From positions 14,240 to 78,239 of the forward strand of contig JBNRMN010000073.1 of the NCBI GenBank assembly GCA_050309605.1: 64,000 nt of DNA, read 5' to 3'. The notes under the pieces are model-generated. The model did not search any database. It was not told the origin of the DNA and saw nothing but the letters and a program-made list of their open reading frames with translations. The first letter of the stretch is position 1; the number at the start of each line of letters is the position of its first letter. This DNA is from Anaerohalosphaeraceae bacterium. GTDB lineage: Bacteria > Planctomycetota > Phycisphaerae > Sedimentisphaerales > Anaerohalosphaeraceae. This document shows positions 23,681 to 60,339 of this stretch, in pieces. The position numbers and the translations under genes are program-made.

Positions 23681-23731
23681 GCGCCGTCTGTGGCAGTTCC
23701 GGGCAGTCCGGGCCGTATAAAACTCAACAGT

Positions 23732-23818
23732 GGAGAGGTGTCGGAGTGGCTTATCGAGCTGGTTTCGAAAACCAGTGTACTCGTCAGAGTACCGCGGGTT
23801 CGAATCCCGCCCTCTCCG
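23732..23818 (+). tRNA. tRNA-Ser (anticodon CGA)
   Basis: Acceptor GGAGAGG/CCTCTCC, anticodon arm CTGGT-TTCGAAA-ACCAG, long variable arm, GGTTCGAATCC T-arm; CCA not encoded. Confidence 0.96.
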
Positions 23819-24056
23819 TTATTTTCTTTTATCCTGTCGCTGTCTCTGTAAATTTCAGTCATTTTTCGCCGGCCTGCGCACAAAACCGCAGCAGTCAGCA
23901 CCAAGGTTAAAGTGCAAACGGATGTCTTTTGTCTTAAAACAAGAAAAATGTTGAAATTTTCGCTTGCATTTTTACGATCGATAGATACAATACGACGTTC
24001 TCTTTGGTAAGAAAATATGCAGTTTATCAATAATCACTGGGAAGGTTTGAACTTTT

Positions 24057-53173: not shown

Positions 53174-53216
<43 letters not shown>

Positions 53217-53421
53217 TCCAGACAGGGCGTTTTTAAGTCTTTGTAAAATAAACGTTTAACGCTTTTCTGACAGAGACTTACAGACGATTTTAACACAAGG
53301 CTTAACACTGAGTTTGCACCATTTTCAAAGTAAAAAGTACGGAAAAAGCGCCGGAAAATCGGTCGATTTTCGTCTTTTCTTGTCGTGTAAAGAGAATGGT
53401 AAAAATTGAACATCTAAACAT

Positions 53422-53449
53422 TTGTTAAACGACCTGAGATCGATATAAT
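53422..53449 (+). promoter_or_regulatory. Sigma70-type promoter at the island's left end
   Basis: TTGTTA-N16-TATAAT. Confidence 0.6.
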
Positions 53450-53454
53450 TTTTA

Positions 53455-53510
53455 GCGCGGGATAGCCCGACGGGGCGAAAAACCGGAAAAGTCCGCCGGC
53501 CTGCCCGCGC
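53455..53510 (+). ncRNA. Candidate structured leader RNA (three-way junction)
   Basis: GCGCGGG/CCCGCGC closing stem enclosing GCCC-GACG-GGGC, a GAAAA linker and CCGG-N9-CCGG. Confidence 0.5.
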
Positions 53511-53533
53511 AACTTTCGGACTGGCAAGGGACT

Positions 53534-54358
53534 ATGCCGATGCTGAATGAATTAAAGACCATCCGAGACCTGTTTTCCGATTATTGCGGTACGCCTTCCG
53601 GATTTCCAAAGGCGATGATGGACGCCCTTTTTGTTGCGCTTGCCAAGGTGAAACGGTTTCCGGACAAAAAGGTTTATGAAAGTCTTATAAGGGCGGTCAG
53701 TTTGCTCGGCGCCGCCTGTGAAGGGATTGAGACCGGACAGCGGAGGTACGTGGCCGAGGTGAGTTTTTTGGCCGAGATTGACCGCGTGATCGAGGCTTAT
53801 GAACTGGCCGACCTTGTCGCCTGTGTCCGCGGCGAAAGCCTTGAGGACGCGCGGGTTATCAAAGGTGATGAGTACTGGGAATTTTTTTACCGCGGCGAAC
53901 GTGCAAGAGTGAAGGCCGACCTGATCGGGTTACAGGTGCTGGAAGTCCTGCTGCGACACCCACACTGCAAATTTTTGCATAAAGAACTCCGCGCTGAAGC
54001 GGGGCTGATCTCAAAAACTGAAATGGTTTTTCGCCCGATGGATCAGGTTGATGCGGCAACGCTGAAGCACTTGCAGCCAGAGGCCATCGAAAATTATCTA
54101 TGCACCCATTACAAAGATCCCGCCGAGCGTGCCGAGGCGCGGGAAGAAATTGAGAAATACAAAAAGAACAGCAAGAGCCTGACGGGTCGCGCAAAAAATA
54201 CCGACGCCAAACACTACAAAGCAAACTATGAAAGCCTGAATCTGGTTTTTAAGAAAATCGAAGGACAAAGCAAATTGTTGTTTGGGCATTTCAAAGCAAG
54301 CATTTCCGGGTATTCGCATTATTCGCCCGACGAAAAAATCTGCTGGATTTTTGAATAA
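53534..54358 (+). CDS. Hypothetical protein (first island gene)
   Basis: 274-aa ORF with AAGGGA RBS; no recognisable family. Confidence 0.7.
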   Translation: MPMLNELKTIRDLFSDYCGTPSGFPKAMMDALFVALAKVKRFPDKKVYESLIRAVSLLGAACEGIETGQRRYVAEVSFLAEIDRVIEAYELADLVACVRGESLEDARVIKGDEYWEFFYRGERARVKADLIGLQVLEVLLRHPHCKFLHKELRAEAGLISKTEMVFRPMDQVDAATLKHLQPEAIENYLCTHYKDPAERAEAREEIEKYKKNSKSLTGRAKNTDAKHYKANYESLNLVFKKIEGQSKLLFGHFKASISGYSHYSPDEKICWIFE

Positions 54359-54439
54359 TTTTTTTGACCGTGTGAAAATCACGGTCTGACCGTTAGCAAC
54401 ACCTTGTAGAACGACGGCTTTTTTACAAGGAATTCAAAA

Positions 54440-54631
54440 ATGAGATTGTTAACGGTTTTCCAGATCGCGGACATTTTGGGGGAGCCACCGCATCGGTGCG
54501 AGTACGTTATCCGAAAGTATCGACTGAAACCCCGGCGCCGTGTCGGGATCACGCGGCTTTTTGACGAGGCGCAGGTCGAGGCCATCGAGCAGGGGTTGTA
54601 CGGAATACAAGTCAAGGGGGGGCGACGATGA
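54440..54631 (+). CDS. Small HTH DNA-binding protein (excisionase/MerR-like)
   Basis: LLTVFQIADILG...RVGITRLFDEAQVEAI; AAGGA RBS; ATGA coupling to the next gene. Confidence 0.7.
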   Translation: MRLLTVFQIADILGEPPHRCEYVIRKYRLKPRRRVGITRLFDEAQVEAIEQGLYGIQVKGGRR

Positions 54632-54858
54632 CCGTTTATATGCCCGATGGCCGACCGGCGCCCGTGCTGCTGACCGAGTCTGAGGCAATCCAATTCCTGC
54701 GGCTCGACACGATCGACCTAAAGCACCCCGACCACACGTTGAGGCGGTACAGGGACGCGGGACTGCTGAGATGCGTTCAAATTTCACGGCGAATTTTTTA
54801 CCCCGTTGATGAGTTGATGGCCTTCATCGACCGCCAGAAAGCCGAGGTGGTCAGATGA
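54628..54858 (+). CDS. Small HTH DNA-binding protein (excisionase/AlpA-like)
   Basis: LLTESEAIQFL...TLRRYRDAGLL..VQISRRIFY..DELMAFI; ATGA overlaps on both sides. Confidence 0.78.
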   Translation: MTVYMPDGRPAPVLLTESEAIQFLRLDTIDLKHPDHTLRRYRDAGLLRCVQISRRIFYPVDELMAFIDRQKAEVVR

Positions 54859-56609
54859 AGCCTGTTCTTGATTTCGCATTGGATTTCGCACGTCGCGGGT
54901 GGCAGGTTTTTCCGGTCGAGCACAAGGGCAAGCGACCGGCGACGCTGCACGGCCTGAACGATGCCACGGTGGACGCCGAGCAAATTCAGGCCTGGTTTGG
55001 GAATGGTCGGCTTTATAACATCGCAATCCGCACCGGCGGGGCAAGTGGTTTTGATGTCCTTGACGTTGACGGCGACGAAGGCGACAAATCGCTGCAATCG
55101 CTGATCGCTGTCTATGGGAAACTGCCTGAAACTCCCTGCGTTCAGACCGGCGGCGGCGGGCGGCATTTTTTCTTTAAACACGCTGAAGGGGTTCGCAATT
55201 CTGCAAGTGTTGTCGGCAACAAAATCGACGTCCGCGGCGACGGTGGTTATGTGGTTGCGCCGCCGAGTATTCACGAGAACAGGCAAGAGTACCGCTGGGT
55301 CACGCCCCCGACGACCCCGCTGGCTGAATGGCCGCCGTGGCTGTTGGCGCGAATGAAAGCGGAATCTCGAAAGACCGAACCGGCGCACACTGAACCGGCA
55401 GCGGGGACTATTGCCGCAGGTCAGCGCAATACTGAACTAACCCGTCTGGCCGGCGCGATGCGCCGGCGCGGCTTCGATGCTGTCGCCATAGATGCGGCGT
55501 TGCAACGGCATAATATCGCACACTGTTCACCGCCCCTGTCTGCCGATGAGGTGCGGCGAATCGCCCAAAGTGTCGGAAGGTATGAACCGGCCACGACGAC
55601 GGGCGGCGGCCTGCCCTTGATTCGGCTTTCGAGCGTCAAACCCGAGCCGGTGAGTTGGTTGTGGCACAATCGATTCCCGAACAAAGGTCTGAATCTTATC
55701 GCAGGGATGGGCGAGGTCGGCAAGACCACTTTCGCATCTTATTTGATGGCGCGTCTAACGACTGGGCGCGAGTGGTTTGATTGTGAAAACACCACGGCGC
55801 CCGGGACGTGTTTGTTCATCGGCGACGAGGACGATCTGGGTTGTGCTATTCGGCCAAAACTTGACGCGGCCGGCGCCGATGTGAACCGCATCGCTGCGTT
55901 GGATTATGAATCGTTCCTCAAGACCGGCGGCAGTTTTAATCTGGTCGAACATATCGACCGGCTGGAAAAAACGGTTGAGACGTTGGGCGATGTTCGGGCG
56001 GTATTTTTCGATCCGCTGAACGGGTATCTTGGGCGGATCAACGCTTATTCAGATTCAGAAACGCGCGGCGTTTTGATCCCGCTCCAAAATATTGCGAAAA
56101 AATATGACCTCGCCGTTTTTGGTCTATGTCATCTGAACAAAAAATCTGATCTATCCGCGGTCGATCGCGTGCTGGGAAGCGTGGCTTTCGTGAACACCGC
56201 GCGCAGCGTTTGGTTTATCACGCGGGACAAGGAGACCGATACGCGGTATCTGACAAAGGAGAAATCAAACTATTCCCTGAACCCAACAAACTTATCGTTT
56301 CGCATCATCGATGGCGCGGTGGCTTTTCTGGAAGGGACGACCGACAAGACGGCGGATGACGTGCTGCAAGGCGGAATCCAAAAGGCGGATTCCACCAACG
56401 AATGCATTGAATGGTTGAAGAAAAAGCTGGCCTGGAATTCAGTTTTGTCCAGTGAGATCAGCGCGGAAGCCCGACATTGTGGGTTCAGCGACCACGCCTT
56501 GCGAACCGCAAAGAGGACATTAAACGTCCAGAGCAAAAAGGACGGATACGGCGGCAAGTGGATGTTATCGCTGCCGGAAAATCCGGAAAATGAGGATATA
56601 CCCCTATGA
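54855..56609 (+). CDS. Bifunctional DNA primase/polymerase + PriCT-1 + AAA helicase replication protein
   Basis: NIAIRTG, VLDVDG, TGGGGRHFFF, DVRGDGGYVVAPPS; GQRNTELTRLAG; Walker A GMGEVGKT; Walker B VFFDP; HLNK. Confidence 0.92.
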   Translation: MKPVLDFALDFARRGWQVFPVEHKGKRPATLHGLNDATVDAEQIQAWFGNGRLYNIAIRTGGASGFDVLDVDGDEGDKSLQSLIAVYGKLPETPCVQTGGGGRHFFFKHAEGVRNSASVVGNKIDVRGDGGYVVAPPSIHENRQEYRWVTPPTTPLAEWPPWLLARMKAESRKTEPAHTEPAAGTIAAGQRNTELTRLAGAMRRRGFDAVAIDAALQRHNIAHCSPPLSADEVRRIAQSVGRYEPATTTGGGLPLIRLSSVKPEPVSWLWHNRFPNKGLNLIAGMGEVGKTTFASYLMARLTTGREWFDCENTTAPGTCLFIGDEDDLGCAIRPKLDAAGADVNRIAALDYESFLKTGGSFNLVEHIDRLEKTVETLGDVRAVFFDPLNGYLGRINAYSDSETRGVLIPLQNIAKKYDLAVFGLCHLNKKSDLSAVDRVLGSVAFVNTARSVWFITRDKETDTRYLTKEKSNYSLNPTNLSFRIIDGAVAFLEGTTDKTADDVLQGGIQKADSTNECIEWLKKKLAWNSVLSSEISAEARHCGFSDHALRTAKRTLNVQSKKDGYGGKWMLSLPENPENEDIPL

Positions 56610-56616
56610 TGGTGTA

Positions 56617-56739
56617 TTCAACAACATTCAACAAGTTCCACCATCTTTGGATTTTTAGCCCAAAAATCGAATCGGGCGCGCCGAGAATGGATAACGCCCT
56701 AAAAACTCAAAGATGGTGAATGTTGGTGGAAGATGTTGA
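56617..56739. repeat. Inverted iteron-like repeat array (candidate replication origin)
   Basis: TTCAACAA x2 and TTCCACCATCTTTG.ATTTTTAG face CTAAAAA..CAAAGATGGTGAA, TGGTGGAA and TGTTGA, directly after the primase-helicase gene. Confidence 0.6.
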
Positions 56740-56761
56740 CCTTTTTTTTCAGGAGCAAGAA

Positions 56762-56962
56762 ATGAACTATGGTGAAATAAAAGACCGATTATGGAAGGTT
56801 TCCCGCGAACTACAGCAGGTCGTCGAGGGAATGCCGAAGGCCGACGACCGACCCCGGCGCGCGGTGGCGAATAAGATAGGACATGCCTTTGCGGATATAA
56901 TGGATGCGTATAGTAGGATTTGTGTAAACGAAACTTTTACGAAAGGACCAAAACATGAGTAA
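56762..56962 (+). CDS. Small hypothetical protein
   Basis: AGGAG RBS; 66 aa; overlaps the next gene's start. Confidence 0.6.
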   Translation: MNYGEIKDRLWKVSRELQQVVEGMPKADDRPRRAVANKIGHAFADIMDAYSRICVNETFTKGPKHE

Positions 56963-57581
56963 CCAGACTAAAAACCTCGAAAATGATGATTTTTTGACAG
57001 TGGCTGATCTGCCCGCGGACGTGCGGGCTAAATTGGGCGATGATTTCGACCCTGACGACCTCATCGAAATTGACCGCCTCGCGGGCGTGATGGGTCTTCG
57101 TGTCGAAGAGGGCGACGCGGACAGTTACTGTACTGCTGCGGATTTTCACGGGATGCTGGATACGCTTCGACGCGATGAGATTGAGCGGAACCCCTACGGC
57201 GCGACGCTGGTCGATGACAGCATCGGCGAAGACGACTTGCCCAGCCCACCGCGGGGTGATGATGGCGCAGAGGCAGACGGCCGCGGGCAGGAGATGTTTG
57301 ACTTGGTCAAGCGTGGCGACGATGCCGCCGTTCGTGAGGCGATTGAGTCCGAGAGTGATCCCGCCGCGCTGTACGCCTTCGCCGAACGGCTGGAAAAATC
57401 CGGCGCGGGCGGTGCGTTGAAAATGCAGGCGACGGCGCGGGCGGCAGAACTTGAAGACCTCCAGCGAGACGCTGTCCGCGCCCAGTCCGACGCCCTGACC
57501 GGCTCGTTTGACCAGATGCTGCGAGGAATCGACCGCGCCCGCGCAAAGGGCCGGATTGATGATGGCGCGGCGTTGCGGTGA
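56955..57581 (+). CDS. Acidic hypothetical protein
   Basis: AAGGA RBS; 208 aa, very D/E-rich, helical C-terminus. Confidence 0.7.
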   Translation: MSNQTKNLENDDFLTVADLPADVRAKLGDDFDPDDLIEIDRLAGVMGLRVEEGDADSYCTAADFHGMLDTLRRDEIERNPYGATLVDDSIGEDDLPSPPRGDDGAEADGRGQEMFDLVKRGDDAAVREAIESESDPAALYAFAERLEKSGAGGALKMQATARAAELEDLQRDAVRAQSDALTGSFDQMLRGIDRARAKGRIDDGAALR

Positions 57582-57647
57582 ACCTTTCCTTTCCGAGCGG
57601 GGCGGCGGCGGTTTGGCCGTCCCGCTGATTTGACTTTAGGAGTCGAC

Positions 57648-58085
57648 ATGCTAACAGACAAACAAGAGCGATTTTGCCAAGAATATATTATTGACGGAAA
57701 TGCTGCTGCGGCGTGCCGACGGGCGGGATATGCCGAGAGAAGCGCACGAATCACCGGAAACCGGTTGCTAACAAAAGATGACATCAGGCGTCGGGTTTCT
57801 GAACTACAGGCTGAACGGGCTGAGCGATGCGAAATCACTGCCGATGAGGTTGTGAAAAAACTGCGCGCTATCAGCGAGATGTGGCCGCAGAACCCATCGG
57901 CGGCGTGCCGCGCCCTCGAATTGTTGGGGCGCCACCTTGGGATTTTCGAGCGGGATAATCGGCAACAGCAGACCGCGGTTATTCCAATTCAGGTTACACT
58001 ATCACAACCCGTCGCCGAACGTTTGGCCGCCGAAACGCGCCCGGGCGTGCCGCTGGACGAATTAGCCGCGCCAGACGTCGCCTGA
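57648..58085 (+). CDS. terS: Terminase small subunit
   Basis: MLTDKQERFCQEYIIDGNAAAACRRAGYAERSA...G.RLL...ITADEVV..L...ALELLGRHLGIF; AGGAG RBS. Confidence 0.92.
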   Translation: MLTDKQERFCQEYIIDGNAAAACRRAGYAERSARITGNRLLTKDDIRRRVSELQAERAERCEITADEVVKKLRAISEMWPQNPSAACRALELLGRHLGIFERDNRQQQTAVIPIQVTLSQPVAERLAAETRPGVPLDELAAPDVA

Positions 58086-58166
58086 GGCGTTTTGGCGTCG
58101 AGGGGGTATCCATGGTAGGGTCTGGCCGCGTTTGTCGATCCTGAGCGATCCTGAGGGGCGTGTTTC

Positions 58167-58328
58167 GTGAGACCTGAGAGTTTAGAGAGTCGGATTCGCC
58201 GACATCGGCGGCGTATTGAATACGAAGAACGGACGCTACGGCGGCTGGGCTATGACCCCGAAGAAACCACGGCTAAGCAGGCCGACGAAACCCTGAAAAA
58301 TTTACGTTTCCGGATTGCCAATCCCTAA
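58167..58328 (+). CDS. Small hypothetical protein (53 aa)
   Basis: GAGGGG RBS + GTG: MRPESLESRIRRHRRRIEYEERTLRRLGYDPEETTAKQADETLKNLRFRIANP; below the ORF-track cutoff. Confidence 0.45.
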   Translation: MRPESLESRIRRHRRRIEYEERTLRRLGYDPEETTAKQADETLKNLRFRIANP

Positions 58329-58442
58329 GTCGTTGGGTCTTAAGTCTTTTGCTTTGCTTGCTTTGTGAGTCGCAGGTAAAAAATTCCGTCTGAATTTCCG
58401 TATTTTTCTTGAACTTTTCTGTGATTTAGACGATACTATGAA

Positions 58443-58565
58443 GTGTGAACGTGATACCTGAACAATCCGGAAAAGCATTTCTAAACGATGGTCGGGGACT
58501 GTCTAACCGTAAGGCGACAACCTTCTATTCAGGTAGAGCGTTCACACCCCCGACCACCTTTTTTT
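58443..58565 (+). ncRNA. Candidate structured RNA/5' leader of the integrase
   Basis: 20-bp stem 58443-58462/58528-58547, 9-bp stem 58489-58497/58548-58556, GTAA-tetraloop hairpin and U tract; TTGAAC-N17-GATACT promoter just upstream. Confidence 0.55.
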
Positions 58566-58571
58566 GAAGGG

Positions 58572-59723
58572 ATGGGAAAAATGAAGATTCAACTAACACA
58601 GGACATTAAGACCGACAGGGACAAAAGAACGGTCAGTTATTGGGTCGCCAGATGGTATGACGGCACGGGCAGGCGGCGAAGCAAGTCGTTGGGGCGGACG
58701 GATAAACTGACAAAACGGGAAGCCAAAAAGCTTGCTTTGATGATGGAAACGGATTTCGACCGGCAGCCCGGGCGCAGGAACGCCCAGCGTATGCGGCTGA
58801 AAGACTTTCTGGACACCTACTTCAATTTACGAAAAAATGAACTGGCGAAGGCGTCTTTGTCGCGATACAAAGACACAGGGCGGTATCTGCTGCATTACTT
58901 TGGCGAAGGTCGCCAGATCGATTCAATAACCCCGCAGGATGCGGCACGCTTTAAGGCGGCACTGTCAGCGGGCAAGTTAGCGAACGCAACGCAGAGTCGC
59001 AGGGACGTTAACGGGACATCGGTAACCCTGCATATCCGCAACGCCAAGGCGATATTTAACTACGGCAAAAAGATTATGGGCGCATTGGTTAACAATCCGT
59101 TTGAGGCTCTGTCGGGGCAGGTCAAAACATCGACACAATGGCACTATATCACAATGAAAGAGTTTAACGCCCTAATGGAACACGCCACGTCGAACTTTAA
59201 GGCGATGATTGCCCTTTGTCGCCTGGCTGGACTACGCCGGATGGAAGCCTATTATCTTGAATGGCAAGACGTAAACTTTGACAAAGGCCGGATTTACATT
59301 TGCGGAAAAAACCATTGGAAACCTAAAGACAAGGAGAGCCGCACCATTCCTTTGTGTCCTGAGCTTGCTCAGATTCTTTTAGAGTGTTTTCAGGATGCCC
59401 CAGAAGGTCAAGTCAGGGTTTGCCCTGAAACGAACCCCCAGAACATCGACAGGGGCATTGTCGGAACGATAAAGCGGGCGGGACTGACGAAGTGGCTGAA
59501 GCCCTTGCATAGCCTGCGCAAGAGTTGCATTACCGATTGGGCGGAGCGATACCCAATTCACGCCGTGATGCAGTGGAGCGGACACAGCGACATATCGACG
59601 ACCCAGCGGTATTATACGCAGGTCGGAGATGGTATCTACGATCAGGCGGCGTCTCTTTCTTTTTGGTCAAACAAGACGGAAAAAGCGCCGGAAAACGAAA
59701 AAACAGAAACCCCTGTTGAGTAG
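58572..59723 (+). CDS. int: Tyrosine recombinase/integrase
   Basis: N-terminal arm-binding-like YWVARWYD.TGRRRSKSLG; catalytic GLRRME (R), K, HSLRKS (HxxR), GHS, TTQRYY (Y); ends next to the tRNA att; start 58572 or 58581. Confidence 0.94.
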   Translation: MGKMKIQLTQDIKTDRDKRTVSYWVARWYDGTGRRRSKSLGRTDKLTKREAKKLALMMETDFDRQPGRRNAQRMRLKDFLDTYFNLRKNELAKASLSRYKDTGRYLLHYFGEGRQIDSITPQDAARFKAALSAGKLANATQSRRDVNGTSVTLHIRNAKAIFNYGKKIMGALVNNPFEALSGQVKTSTQWHYITMKEFNALMEHATSNFKAMIALCRLAGLRRMEAYYLEWQDVNFDKGRIYICGKNHWKPKDKESRTIPLCPELAQILLECFQDAPEGQVRVCPETNPQNIDRGIVGTIKRAGLTKWLKPLHSLRKSCITDWAERYPIHAVMQWSGHSDISTTQRYYTQVGDGIYDQAASLSFWSNKTEKAPENEKTETPVE

Positions 59724-59764
59724 TGTAGAATTGTAAGCCCTTTATATGAATGCCTTTAACGAAA

Positions 59765-59838
59765 CGCGCCCGAAGGGATTCGAACCCCTGACCTACGGAT
59801 TAGAAATCCGTTGCTCTATCCGGCTGAGCTACGAGCGC
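59765..59838 (-). tRNA. tRNA-Arg (anticodon TCT), integration target
   Basis: GCGCTCGTAGCTCAGCCGGATAGAGCAACGGATTTCTAATCCGTAGGTCAGGGGTTCGAATCCCTTCGGGCGCG cloverleaf. Confidence 0.96.
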
Positions 59839-60339
59839 CTAAGTGTATAAGTCTTTTTTCTCATAAGACTTTATCTGACTTCCTGCAAGTGTCTTTCTCG
59901 CAGCCTTTCTTTACAAGGGTCGTCTGCGATAAACACCTTTTTTGTTGCCGTATGGAACCTTTTTTCCGGGGGTCCGCCGGTATTTGACGGATGGATTTTA
60001 TCATAACACCGCCAGTCGCGCAAGTCTTATTTTTCAGTTTTCTTGTTAATGATTTTTCCAGTTCTCGTTTCAAAAACCACATCCTCACTGATTCGGTAAA
60101 GCGGAGAGAAATAACAATCTGGAGTAAAGAACAAGATAAACAAAATAATAAAAATCTACAAAACCAGGAATGGTACCTATTGCATTGTCATTTGAAAAGG
60201 GAGTACAATAAGATGCGTTTGATGCTTGGGGTGCATAAATTGATCGGTGTGATGGGGATCTGTTTGTGTTTTGAAGTTCCTGCGTTTGCGGACTGTCTTT
60301 CGGCCGCCCTTTATGTTGTCCACCGCCGCAGCCAAAACG

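Follow-up and report, generated by a model that had tools for sequence, protein, structure and literature searches.

The integrase gene of a small integrative element in a planctomycete is preceded by a leader region that, we are confident, is a functional, structured, cis-acting RNA. The sequence concerned is a stretch of 64,000 nucleotides (nt) of contig JBNRMN010000073.1 (positions 14,240 to 78,239 of the forward strand; assembly GCA_050309605.1) from an Anaerohalosphaeraceae bacterium of the order Sedimentisphaerales. This whole stretch is here called the window, and coordinates refer to it. The leader occupies positions 58443–58567, between a predicted promoter and the tyrosine integrase gene int, and all its features are on the forward strand. 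It belongs to a conserved, lineage-restricted RNA motif of recombinase genes in the mobile elements of one order, which is apparently undescribed. The function that we favour, and to which we give about an even chance, is that this region is the 5′ leader of the integrase mRNA and acts as a pseudoknotted attenuator or insulator of recombinase expression, threaded by a leaderless upstream open reading frame (uORF). The family is supported by covariation and has more than 35 examples, which come from satellites, prophages and further islands within one Planctomycetota order.

Organisation of the leader

A sigma-70-like promoter, TTGAAC-N17-GATACT, can be read from the sequence at 58409–58437 (−35 at 58409–58414, −10 at 58432–58437), and its spacing places the predicted transcription start (+1) at about 58443–58445. 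It matches only 8 of 12 consensus positions, and is absent from the list produced by a consensus promoter scan. The leader that follows contains two long-range helices and a hairpin. The first helix, S1, was found as inverted repeat I10, with 20-nt arms at 58443–58462 (S1a) and 58528–58547 (S1b) that are 85% complementary, lie 65 nt apart and contain a tandem G.A mismatch. S1a, which includes the 5′-terminal start codon, is identified by repeat search, fold and covariation, and S1b by repeat search and covariation. Next to S1a is an A-rich loop, L1 (58463–58488), which contains 'CCGGAAAAGCATTTCTAA' and carries the family motif AAUCCG, found in all members of class A as defined below. The second helix, S2, is a perfect 9-bp pairing of TGGTCGGGG (S2a, 58489–58497) with CCCCGACCA (S2b, 58548–58556). 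S2b abuts S1b, so that S2 crosses S1, and the two helices have no nucleotides in common. Because of this crossing they make up either a pseudoknot or a pair of helices that exclude each other sterically. The inner hairpin, H (58500–58519), reads UGUC-UAA-CC-GUAA-GG-C-GACA and has a GNRA loop; the family sequence of this hairpin is GUCUAnCCGnAAGG. Two nucleotides 3′ of S2b there is a U7 tract (T7 in the DNA, 58559–58565), which together with S2 resembles an intrinsic terminator. It is followed by GAAGGGA (58566–58572), a Shine-Dalgarno (SD)-like sequence for int, and by the int ATG at 58581. The original prediction, made from the letters of this DNA, had described the promoter, S1 with its tandem mismatch, the crossing 9-bp S2, the GUAA hairpin and the U7 tract, and all of these are present in the sequence.

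The list of open reading frames (ORFs) contains a leaderless uORF at 58445–58567, with a GTG start, 40 codons and a TGA at 58565–58567. It passes through S1a, L1, S2a, H, S1b and S2b, and its stop codon lies within the T tract, abutting the SD.

The leader RNA has a predicted folding energy of −44.6 kcal/mol, compared with −32.9 ± 3.9 kcal/mol for shuffled sequences (z = −3.0), and only one of 200 shuffles equals it. In the whole window, S1b is the sole partner of the S1a 20-mer at up to three mismatches, where 0.02 matches would be expected. A search of the window with S1a and L1 at the same limit gave nothing besides S1b, and no second copy of L1. An Rfam 15 cmscan of 57800–60200 at E ≤ 10 returned eight matches, none of which overlaps 58443–58562. 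The nearest is mir-3036 (58382–58439, E = 9.8), and the only match above its gathering score is a true tRNA at 59765–59838. The leader is not itself tRNA-like, as ARAGORN and the Rfam tRNA model find tRNAs only at 23731–23819 and 59765–59838.

Covariation in related leaders

The window integrase has 88 relatives at E ≤ 1e-10, the nearest of them named as Phycisphaerae, Sedimentisphaerales or Planctomycetota. A single-protein search of genome contigs gave two distant matches only, and relatives were instead collected by alignment-based scans (51 metagenome loci and 9 viral loci) and by a search of related genomes, with matches in 19 of 61. The homologous integrases adjoin tRNA-Arg(TCT), tRNA-Pro(GGG), tRNA-Met(CAT) and tRNA-Gly(CCC) genes, and the upstream regions of several of them share the architecture of the window leader and differ greatly from it in stem sequence. 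A first covariance model (R1), based on S2 and the hairpin, gave 11 matches at E < 1e-8 among 83 sources. A set of 33 sequences, from which a second model (R2) was built, includes two classes: class A leaders begin 5′ GTGA (11 sequences including the window, alignment A3), and class B leaders begin 5′ ATG.

All three helices covary in the homologues; covariation of the two stems had been proposed as a check in the original prediction. In alignment A3, 88.9% of the cells assigned to S1, S2 and H are paired, compared with 36–46% when the partner columns are slid by 1–3 positions. Compensatory changes are seen in 21 of the 33 pairs, and none of 500 shuffles attains the observed values. Across all 33 sequences, pairing in S2 and H reaches 96.1%, and 13 of 15 pairs carry compensatory changes, in an alignment that was fitted to the model, which favours this result; S2 by itself has compensatory changes in eight of its nine pairs. 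The MAFFT alignment (A2) misaligned S1 in three sequences, and S1 was therefore judged on A3 and on an alignment-free duplex test; the class B alignment (A4) was left out of the pair counts. In the duplex test, the first 24 nt of each member were paired with the segment preceding S2b. The mean energy is −17.9 kcal/mol with the member's own segment, against −7.0 ± 3.0 kcal/mol with those of other members, and the member's own S1b is the best partner of S1a in 28 of the 33. G-U pairs outnumber A-C pairs by 29 to 4 in A3 and by 25 to 11 in alignment A5, and therefore the sense strand is the folding strand.

Between the window and locus L031, an element with a tRNA-Met target, the leader is identical at 37–39 of 40 positions per bin, against 20–34 of 40 in the homologous flanks. 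The hairpin is the most conserved sequence of the family, whatever the tRNA target. A run of at least four T within 12 nt after S2b, beginning 1–2 nt downstream of it, is present in 29 of the 33 members, with a mean of 5.8 T in the 10 nt after S2b against a background of 0.23. The original prediction had listed an attenuator or riboregulator as one of its possibilities, and the covarying stems and hairpin, with this T run, support that possibility in kind.

The 5′ start codon and the upstream reading frame

Two features that the original prediction does not mention are the phasing of the promoter on a start codon and an open frame that begins there. The promoter places +1 on a 5′ RTG (GTG or ATG), at the first base of S1a, in 24 of the 33 members, compared with 47 of 3300 random positions (1.4%). 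Of the 29 members with this codon, 26 have no stop in its frame as far as the end of S2b; for the other two frames the corresponding numbers are 0 and 7. The phase at S2b is distributed 13/11/6, and the phase in which H and S2b are read varies from member to member; it is therefore the open frame that is kept, and not a peptide. A conserved leader peptide is ruled out by the same observation, and the uORFs of the members contain no shared run of regulatory codons and no conserved arrest peptide. We consider it fairly likely that the uORF is translated and that its translation matters.

The stops of the uORFs cluster at the main start. Half of the open uORFs (13 of 26) terminate in the interval from −18 to +3 nt relative to the main ATG, and L088, L091 and L031 do so in an ATGA overlap. 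Of the 26, three are fused in frame with the main ORF and ten overlap it out of frame. In the variant L025, where T8 replaces T7, the uORF stop falls on the int ATG.

Class B shows a further feature, a repeat of the start region. In nine of the 33 members (L091, L095, L096, L097, L102, L108, L109, L111 and L035), nt 4–18 of the uORF are identical at 10 or more of 15 positions to nt 4–18 of the downstream ORF, a level reached by 12 of 1056 non-self pairs; the first 10–17 nt of the uORF (ATG and the codons after it) are copied at the start of the downstream ORF. Three more viral contigs (L141, L155 and L158) have the repeat by eye. The related L097 and L111 show a single difference within the repeat (CAA or CGA), which both copies carry. 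Either copy is thus available for pairing with S1b. The repeat may represent a start-codon mimic acting as a switch, a duplication, or a substrate for precise deletion. The window leader, which is of class A, does not have it.

Distribution and gene association

The motif is restricted to one lineage. Of 151 genomes of the same order, 23 gave R1 matches (28 in all), while R2 found none in 131 genomes from other orders of the class and none in 150 further genomes sampled phylum-wide. R2 also gave six full-length matches in IMG/VR contigs that had been preselected by the hairpin pattern. In genome G000 the motif is single-copy by DNA search and by model, and there are no arrays. It is not in Rfam 15, and no description of it was found in the literature searched.

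In nearly all cases the motif is immediately 5′ of an SD and start codon on the same strand. A Phage_integrase (PF00589) gene follows it, directly or past one or two small ORFs, in 25 of the 33 loci; for L095, one of the 25, the match is confined to the N-terminal SAM-like domain of the integrase. The remaining eight loci are cut short or unannotated.

Some loci depart from this arrangement. Most of the integrase relatives that target tRNA-Gly(CCC) (L038, L040, L046, L049, L052, L053, L057, L060 and others) have no leader; int in these loci comes directly after, or overlaps, an upstream gene that by eye resembles the HTH_17 ORF of the window element. Within a single integrase family, then, the leader behaves as a module that some members have and others lack. 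In three IMG/VR contigs (L154, L156 and L158) the motif precedes operons with no integrase-size ORF within about 2.4 kb downstream, the ORFs being for example of 161 and 228 amino acids (aa), and the motif may thus also serve other early or regulatory phage operons. Downstream of the motif in L098 (G009:C149) come an 82-aa ORF, which has a LexA_DNA_bind domain, and after it tRNA-Thr; this ORF may be a repressor gene under the same leader.

The integrative element

The integrase gene (58581–59723, forward strand) encodes 380 aa with a PF00589 domain (E = 1.3e-19). Its end is separated by 42 nt from the tRNA-Arg(TCT) gene (59765–59838, reverse strand; ARAGORN and Rfam tRNA model), which is the integration target and whose 3′ half comes from the element. 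A displaced remnant of the tRNA 3′ end is found at 53176–53216 (repeat D1, 85% over 41 nt). The att core, GACCTACGGATTAGAAAT, is perfect over 18 bp between the tRNA gene and this 41-nt copy; the right copy is at 59790–59807 and the left copy, within the remnant, at 53199–53216. On the basis of these two copies the element is about 6.6 kb long (53199–59807). Its products include an HTH_17 protein, a Prim-Pol/PriCT_1/AAA_25 replicase, a small terminase subunit (Terminase_2) and the integrase, and there are no structural genes. Such a gene set is that of a phage satellite, similar to P4 or to the phage-inducible chromosomal islands (PICI). Four further ORFs (53534–54358, 56720–56962, 56955–57581 and 58167–58328) have no Pfam match. 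The longest inverted repeat of the element, I1 (56618–56658 and 56699–56739; 41-nt arms, 78% complementary, 40 nt apart), is placed between the replicase gene and the next ORF, and may be an origin or an operator.

The element has a repeated arm-like word, CGGAAAA. An arm-type repeat, ACGGAAAAAGCGCCGGAAAA, is found on the forward strand on the P′ side (53339–53358) and on the P side (59676–59695), inside the 3′ end of int (repeat D9). CGGAAAA occurs 31 times in the window, against 19.6 ± 4.3 expected, and 11 of the 31 copies are within the element; pairs of the word with a 12-nt separation flank attP on either side, and an inverted pair is found just upstream of the int −35. This inverted pair consists of two arm-like words (TTCCGT on the forward strand, ACGGAA on the reverse strand) at 58384–58401 on the reverse strand, 12 nt apart and abutting the −35, and 58384–58407 is an inverted match (I4, 75%) of the arm repeat at 53333–53356. 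The tRNA-Met element L031, whose integrase is 45.6% identical to that of the window, has the same layout of arm words (1999–2025 and 725–743), with three copies of CGGAAAAT at the place matching the P-side arm repeat of the window, in the 3′ end of int. The inverted pair upstream of the −35 is also present in L031 and L032. This suggests that the integrases of the window and L031 have a common arm-binding specificity and different core specificities. The words at 58384–58401 are candidate sites for Int or another regulator, and autoregulation by Int through these promoter-proximal words is possible.

Likeness of the leader to the tRNA target

The original prediction had also proposed that the loop of the leader is collinear with tRNA-Arg and that a second partial match resembles the att core. 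The letters concerned are indeed present, as ATTTCTAA in L1 and TCTAACCGTA in the hairpin. The likeness is not above chance, since the leader aligns locally with its own tRNA at a score of 12, which 2 of 12 tRNAs of other types from other elements equal. By chance alone, sequences of 118 nt and 74 nt (both strands) should have about 0.2 8-mers in common. TCTAACCGTA is part of the family-wide hairpin GUCUAnCCGnAAGG, and CCGGAAAA overlaps the L1 motif AAUYCCG, which is common to all class A leaders.

The test that the original prediction regarded as decisive was whether the loop changes with the tRNA target. It was applied to the 15 members with a tRNA no more than 3 kb past the recombinase gene, representing ten anticodon types. 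No tracking is seen. The mean local score of the motif is 8.6 against its own tRNA and 8.67 against foreign tRNAs, and the longest shared word averages 6.6 and 6.63 nt respectively. The only outlier is L090, with a score of 13 against its own tRNA-Tyr, which as one member of 15 is taken as chance. L031 has GCACTTCTGAACG where the window has GCATTTCTAAACG, and yet integrates into tRNA-Met. The likeness to tRNA-Arg and to the att core is a coincidence, and the idea of an RNA-guided tyrosine integrase is thus removed by the very test that had been proposed for it.

Proposed mechanism

We hypothesise that the leader acts as follows. A strong sigma-70-type promoter would start the transcript on its own GTG or ATG. 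S1 pairs this 5′-terminal start codon and the codons next to it with a stretch some 85 nt further downstream, and since S2b follows directly after S1b, the crossing helices S1 and S2 would form a pseudoknot that is probably coaxially stacked. If no ribosome has loaded before S1b is made, S1 would lock the start codon, S2 would form, and the U tract would end or block the transcript. A ribosome that loads in time on the 5′ RTG, during synthesis of the leader, would keep S1 and S2 open and would then be released at the int SD, so that translation of the uORF would be coupled to that of int. Transcripts arriving from upstream would be unable to initiate on this codon without a leader and would be stopped, and int would be insulated from read-through. 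For the termination logic in this form, and for its polarity, we would put the chances at somewhat below even.

If this is correct, the leader is a compact filter that passes the transcripts of only one promoter, and ties excision and integration to translation capacity. It would also be a well-defined test case of leaderless translation outside Actinobacteria and Deinococcus. A bolder form of the proposal, which we regard as doubtful, is that the motif is a riboregulator of a new class, which senses what 5′ end a transcript has: only RNAs starting precisely on the RTG would load a ribosome in leaderless fashion, and this ribosome would have to outrun the folding of an S1/S2 pseudoknot that would otherwise hold the start codon locked and end the transcript. 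The class B repeat would then make a start-codon-mimic switch, or possibly a bypass landing site or a substrate for leader deletion, and the terminated RNA of about 118 nt could also act in trans.

A number of observations weigh against the attenuator as described. S1 and S2 share no nucleotides, and there can be no classical competition between terminator and antiterminator, which makes the polarity a guess. A terminator scan did not call S2 with its U tract, and because S2 encloses 50 nt it would be a non-canonical terminator. The sequences of H and L1 are kept well beyond what a plain attenuator needs, and this fits a bound ligand or protein at least as well, if not better. The leaderless transcript start is predicted from promoter spacing, and leaderless initiation on GUG in this lineage is presumed. 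Three of the 29 uORFs are interrupted (L100, L103 and L110), and four of the 33 members (L087, L104, L107 and L044) have no 5′ RTG. The members are moreover related to each other, so that the counts given above overstate their independence. It was considered that S1b might mask the int start when S1a is absent. The unpaired probability from −14 to +3 of the start, calculated with and without S1a, shows no consistent change (by more than 0.15 it fell in one of 33 members and rose in four), and this masking is accordingly rejected; the comparison spanned −14 to +3, and the start repeat at +4 to +18 lies outside it. Finally, four RNA or RNA-labelled runs were examined as contigs, which cannot show RNA ends and whose gaps in coverage carry no information. 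The sole RNA evidence is a 176-nt contig from the metatranscriptome run X20 (58496–58670, depth 24.4), a T8 variant that bridges the U tract into int and that is possibly DNA carry-over. Run X17, which is probably DNA, covered 58551–58746, and most of the other contig pieces from these runs are matches to foreign tRNAs.

Alternative explanations

Leaders that belong to very different recombinases keep H (GUCUAnCCGnAAGG) and L1 in sequence and not just in pairing, which is what would be expected if the pseudoknot were an aptamer for an order-specific host metabolite or RNA-binding protein that sets termination or translation of the recombinase operon, with the uORF secondary. Compact tertiary folds typically combine a GNRA loop and A-rich strands, and both are present here; the confinement of the motif to one order would also fit a host-specific factor. 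There is no candidate ligand or protein for such an aptamer and no riboswitch match in Rfam 15, and an aptamer alone leaves the open-frame signal (26 of 29) unexplained, so that we think it unlikely. A different possibility dispenses with termination: S1 would protect the 5′ end of the mRNA, and the uORF would deliver ribosomes to the main start or, in other members, block it. The pairing of the 5′ end from about +1, the clustering of uORF stops at the main start, and the RNA-library contig that continues from the leader into int are all compatible with such a stabiliser and translational coupler. It leaves unexplained both the GC-rich S2 with its T run (29 of 33) and the conserved hairpin, and we rate it as distinctly unlikely. 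If the terminator-like end is instead taken at face value, the promoter, this end and the strong sequence conservation make up the complete anatomy of a stand-alone small RNA of about 118 nt, which would act in trans (for example on Int, immunity or host mRNAs) with int expression as a by-product of read-through. An SD and a start codon on the strand of the motif nearly always come straight after it, a role in cis is indicated by the open frame and by where its stops fall, and no complementary target was found in the window; a trans-acting RNA is on these grounds improbable.

The other alternatives concern recombination at the DNA level or the choice of target. The original prediction had suggested, as its most conservative explanation, a pseudo-att site in which Int binds the arm-type CGGAAAA and the core-like ATTTCTAA and represses its own gene. 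Part of this is supported: CGGAAAA is an arm-like word of the element, over-represented in the window and forming the paired repeats that flank attP, and its inverted pair abutting the −35 is kept in L031. The part within the leader has evidence against it. The loop copy lies within AAUYCCG, which is common to the leaders of unrelated recombinases expected to have other arm sites, and the core-like word is at chance level and becomes CTTCTGAA in L031 without matching tRNA-Met. The covariation, with the asymmetry between G-U and A-C pairs, moreover indicates selection on a folded single strand rather than on duplex DNA. We therefore give the pseudo-att site little credence as an explanation of the leader, while binding of Int at the promoter-proximal pair is possible as an added layer of control. 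Covariation cannot separate a structured RNA from folded single-stranded DNA, a caveat stated in PMC5737381, and the leader might accordingly be a folded recombinase site like integron attC or the attP of CTX phage, with the RTGAA/TTCAY boxes at the base of S1 as binding boxes; the stem has the appropriate conserved base, variable but complementary remainder and central mismatch. Against this, the att sites of the element are of the ordinary duplex type and lie in a tRNA gene, the motif forms no arrays and is single-copy in G000, and the phased promoter, open frame, U tract and SD are features of an RNA, specifically an mRNA. Such a site is very improbable. The most far-reaching suggestion was that the RNA carries target-site information for the tyrosine recombinase, in the manner of a bridge RNA. 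In its favour are only the position of a structured RNA in the 5′ untranslated region of a recombinase gene and the short word matches in one window. The similarity to the member's own target equals that to other targets (15 members, ten tRNA types), elements in tRNA-Arg and tRNA-Met have nearly the same loop, the hairpin word resembling the att core is family-wide, and no RNA-guided tyrosine recombinase appears among the top-ranked titles and abstract openings of a full-text literature search. We consider this suggestion largely refuted and hardly tenable. The preferred reading of the leader remains that of an attenuator or insulator threaded by a leaderless uORF.

Comparison with known systems

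The silencing of recombinases in integrative elements has been worked out in detail for only a few model phages. In phage lambda, sib retroregulation depends on a site 3′ of int and acts through RNase III, and in IS10 and IS50 fold-back inhibition masks the ribosome-binding site. The leader described here resembles both, in that an RNA structure would silence a recombinase or transposase unless the transcript has the right origin. It differs from them in being 5′, terminator-like and threaded by a leaderless uORF.

The attP of CTX phage is a folded single-stranded DNA site for a tyrosine recombinase. The attC sites of integrons (mentioned in PMC5737381) are likewise folded single-stranded sites. 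The resemblance to the leader lies in the imperfect inverted repeats, the conserved base boxes, the variable complementary stem and the location next to tyrosine recombinase genes. Unlike these sites, the motif occurs once, has a promoter on one side and an SD on the other, and is traversed by an ORF, and the element uses ordinary tRNA att sites.

The bridge (or seek) RNAs of IS110 and IS1111 are presented in PMC11208160 and PMC11208158 as structured non-coding RNAs in the 5′ untranslated end of the recombinase gene, and as far as those accounts go the leader is like them in being a structured RNA at that end of the recombinase gene of a mobile element. The recombinase is different, since the genes adjoining the motif, like int itself, encode PF00589 tyrosine recombinases and not DEDD (RuvC-like)/Tnp enzymes. 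The loops of the motif neither match nor track the target, and its variable parts are the stems and not guide loops.

The closest parallels are found among the leader-peptide attenuators, with which the pyrBI-type coupling attenuator may be named. Here, as there, a short 5′ ORF overlaps a structure that ends in a stem and U tract upstream of the genes. In mycobacteria, leaderless short ORFs are reported in outline to act as attenuators (bioRxiv 10.1101/834739); in such attenuators it is the act of translation that matters and not the peptide, and the transcript begins with AUG or GUG, as we propose here. This makes them the closest precedent for the mechanism of the leader, as far as that outline extends. 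The motif differs from leader-peptide attenuators in having no run of regulatory codons, in helices that cross rather than compete, in a start codon locked within a helix of 13–20 bp, in a near-invariant GNRA hairpin, and in being dedicated to the operons of recombinases and mobile elements; its mechanism is also one that we infer. What the motif brings together is a leaderless uORF, a start codon locked in a helix, and a crossing terminator-like helix.

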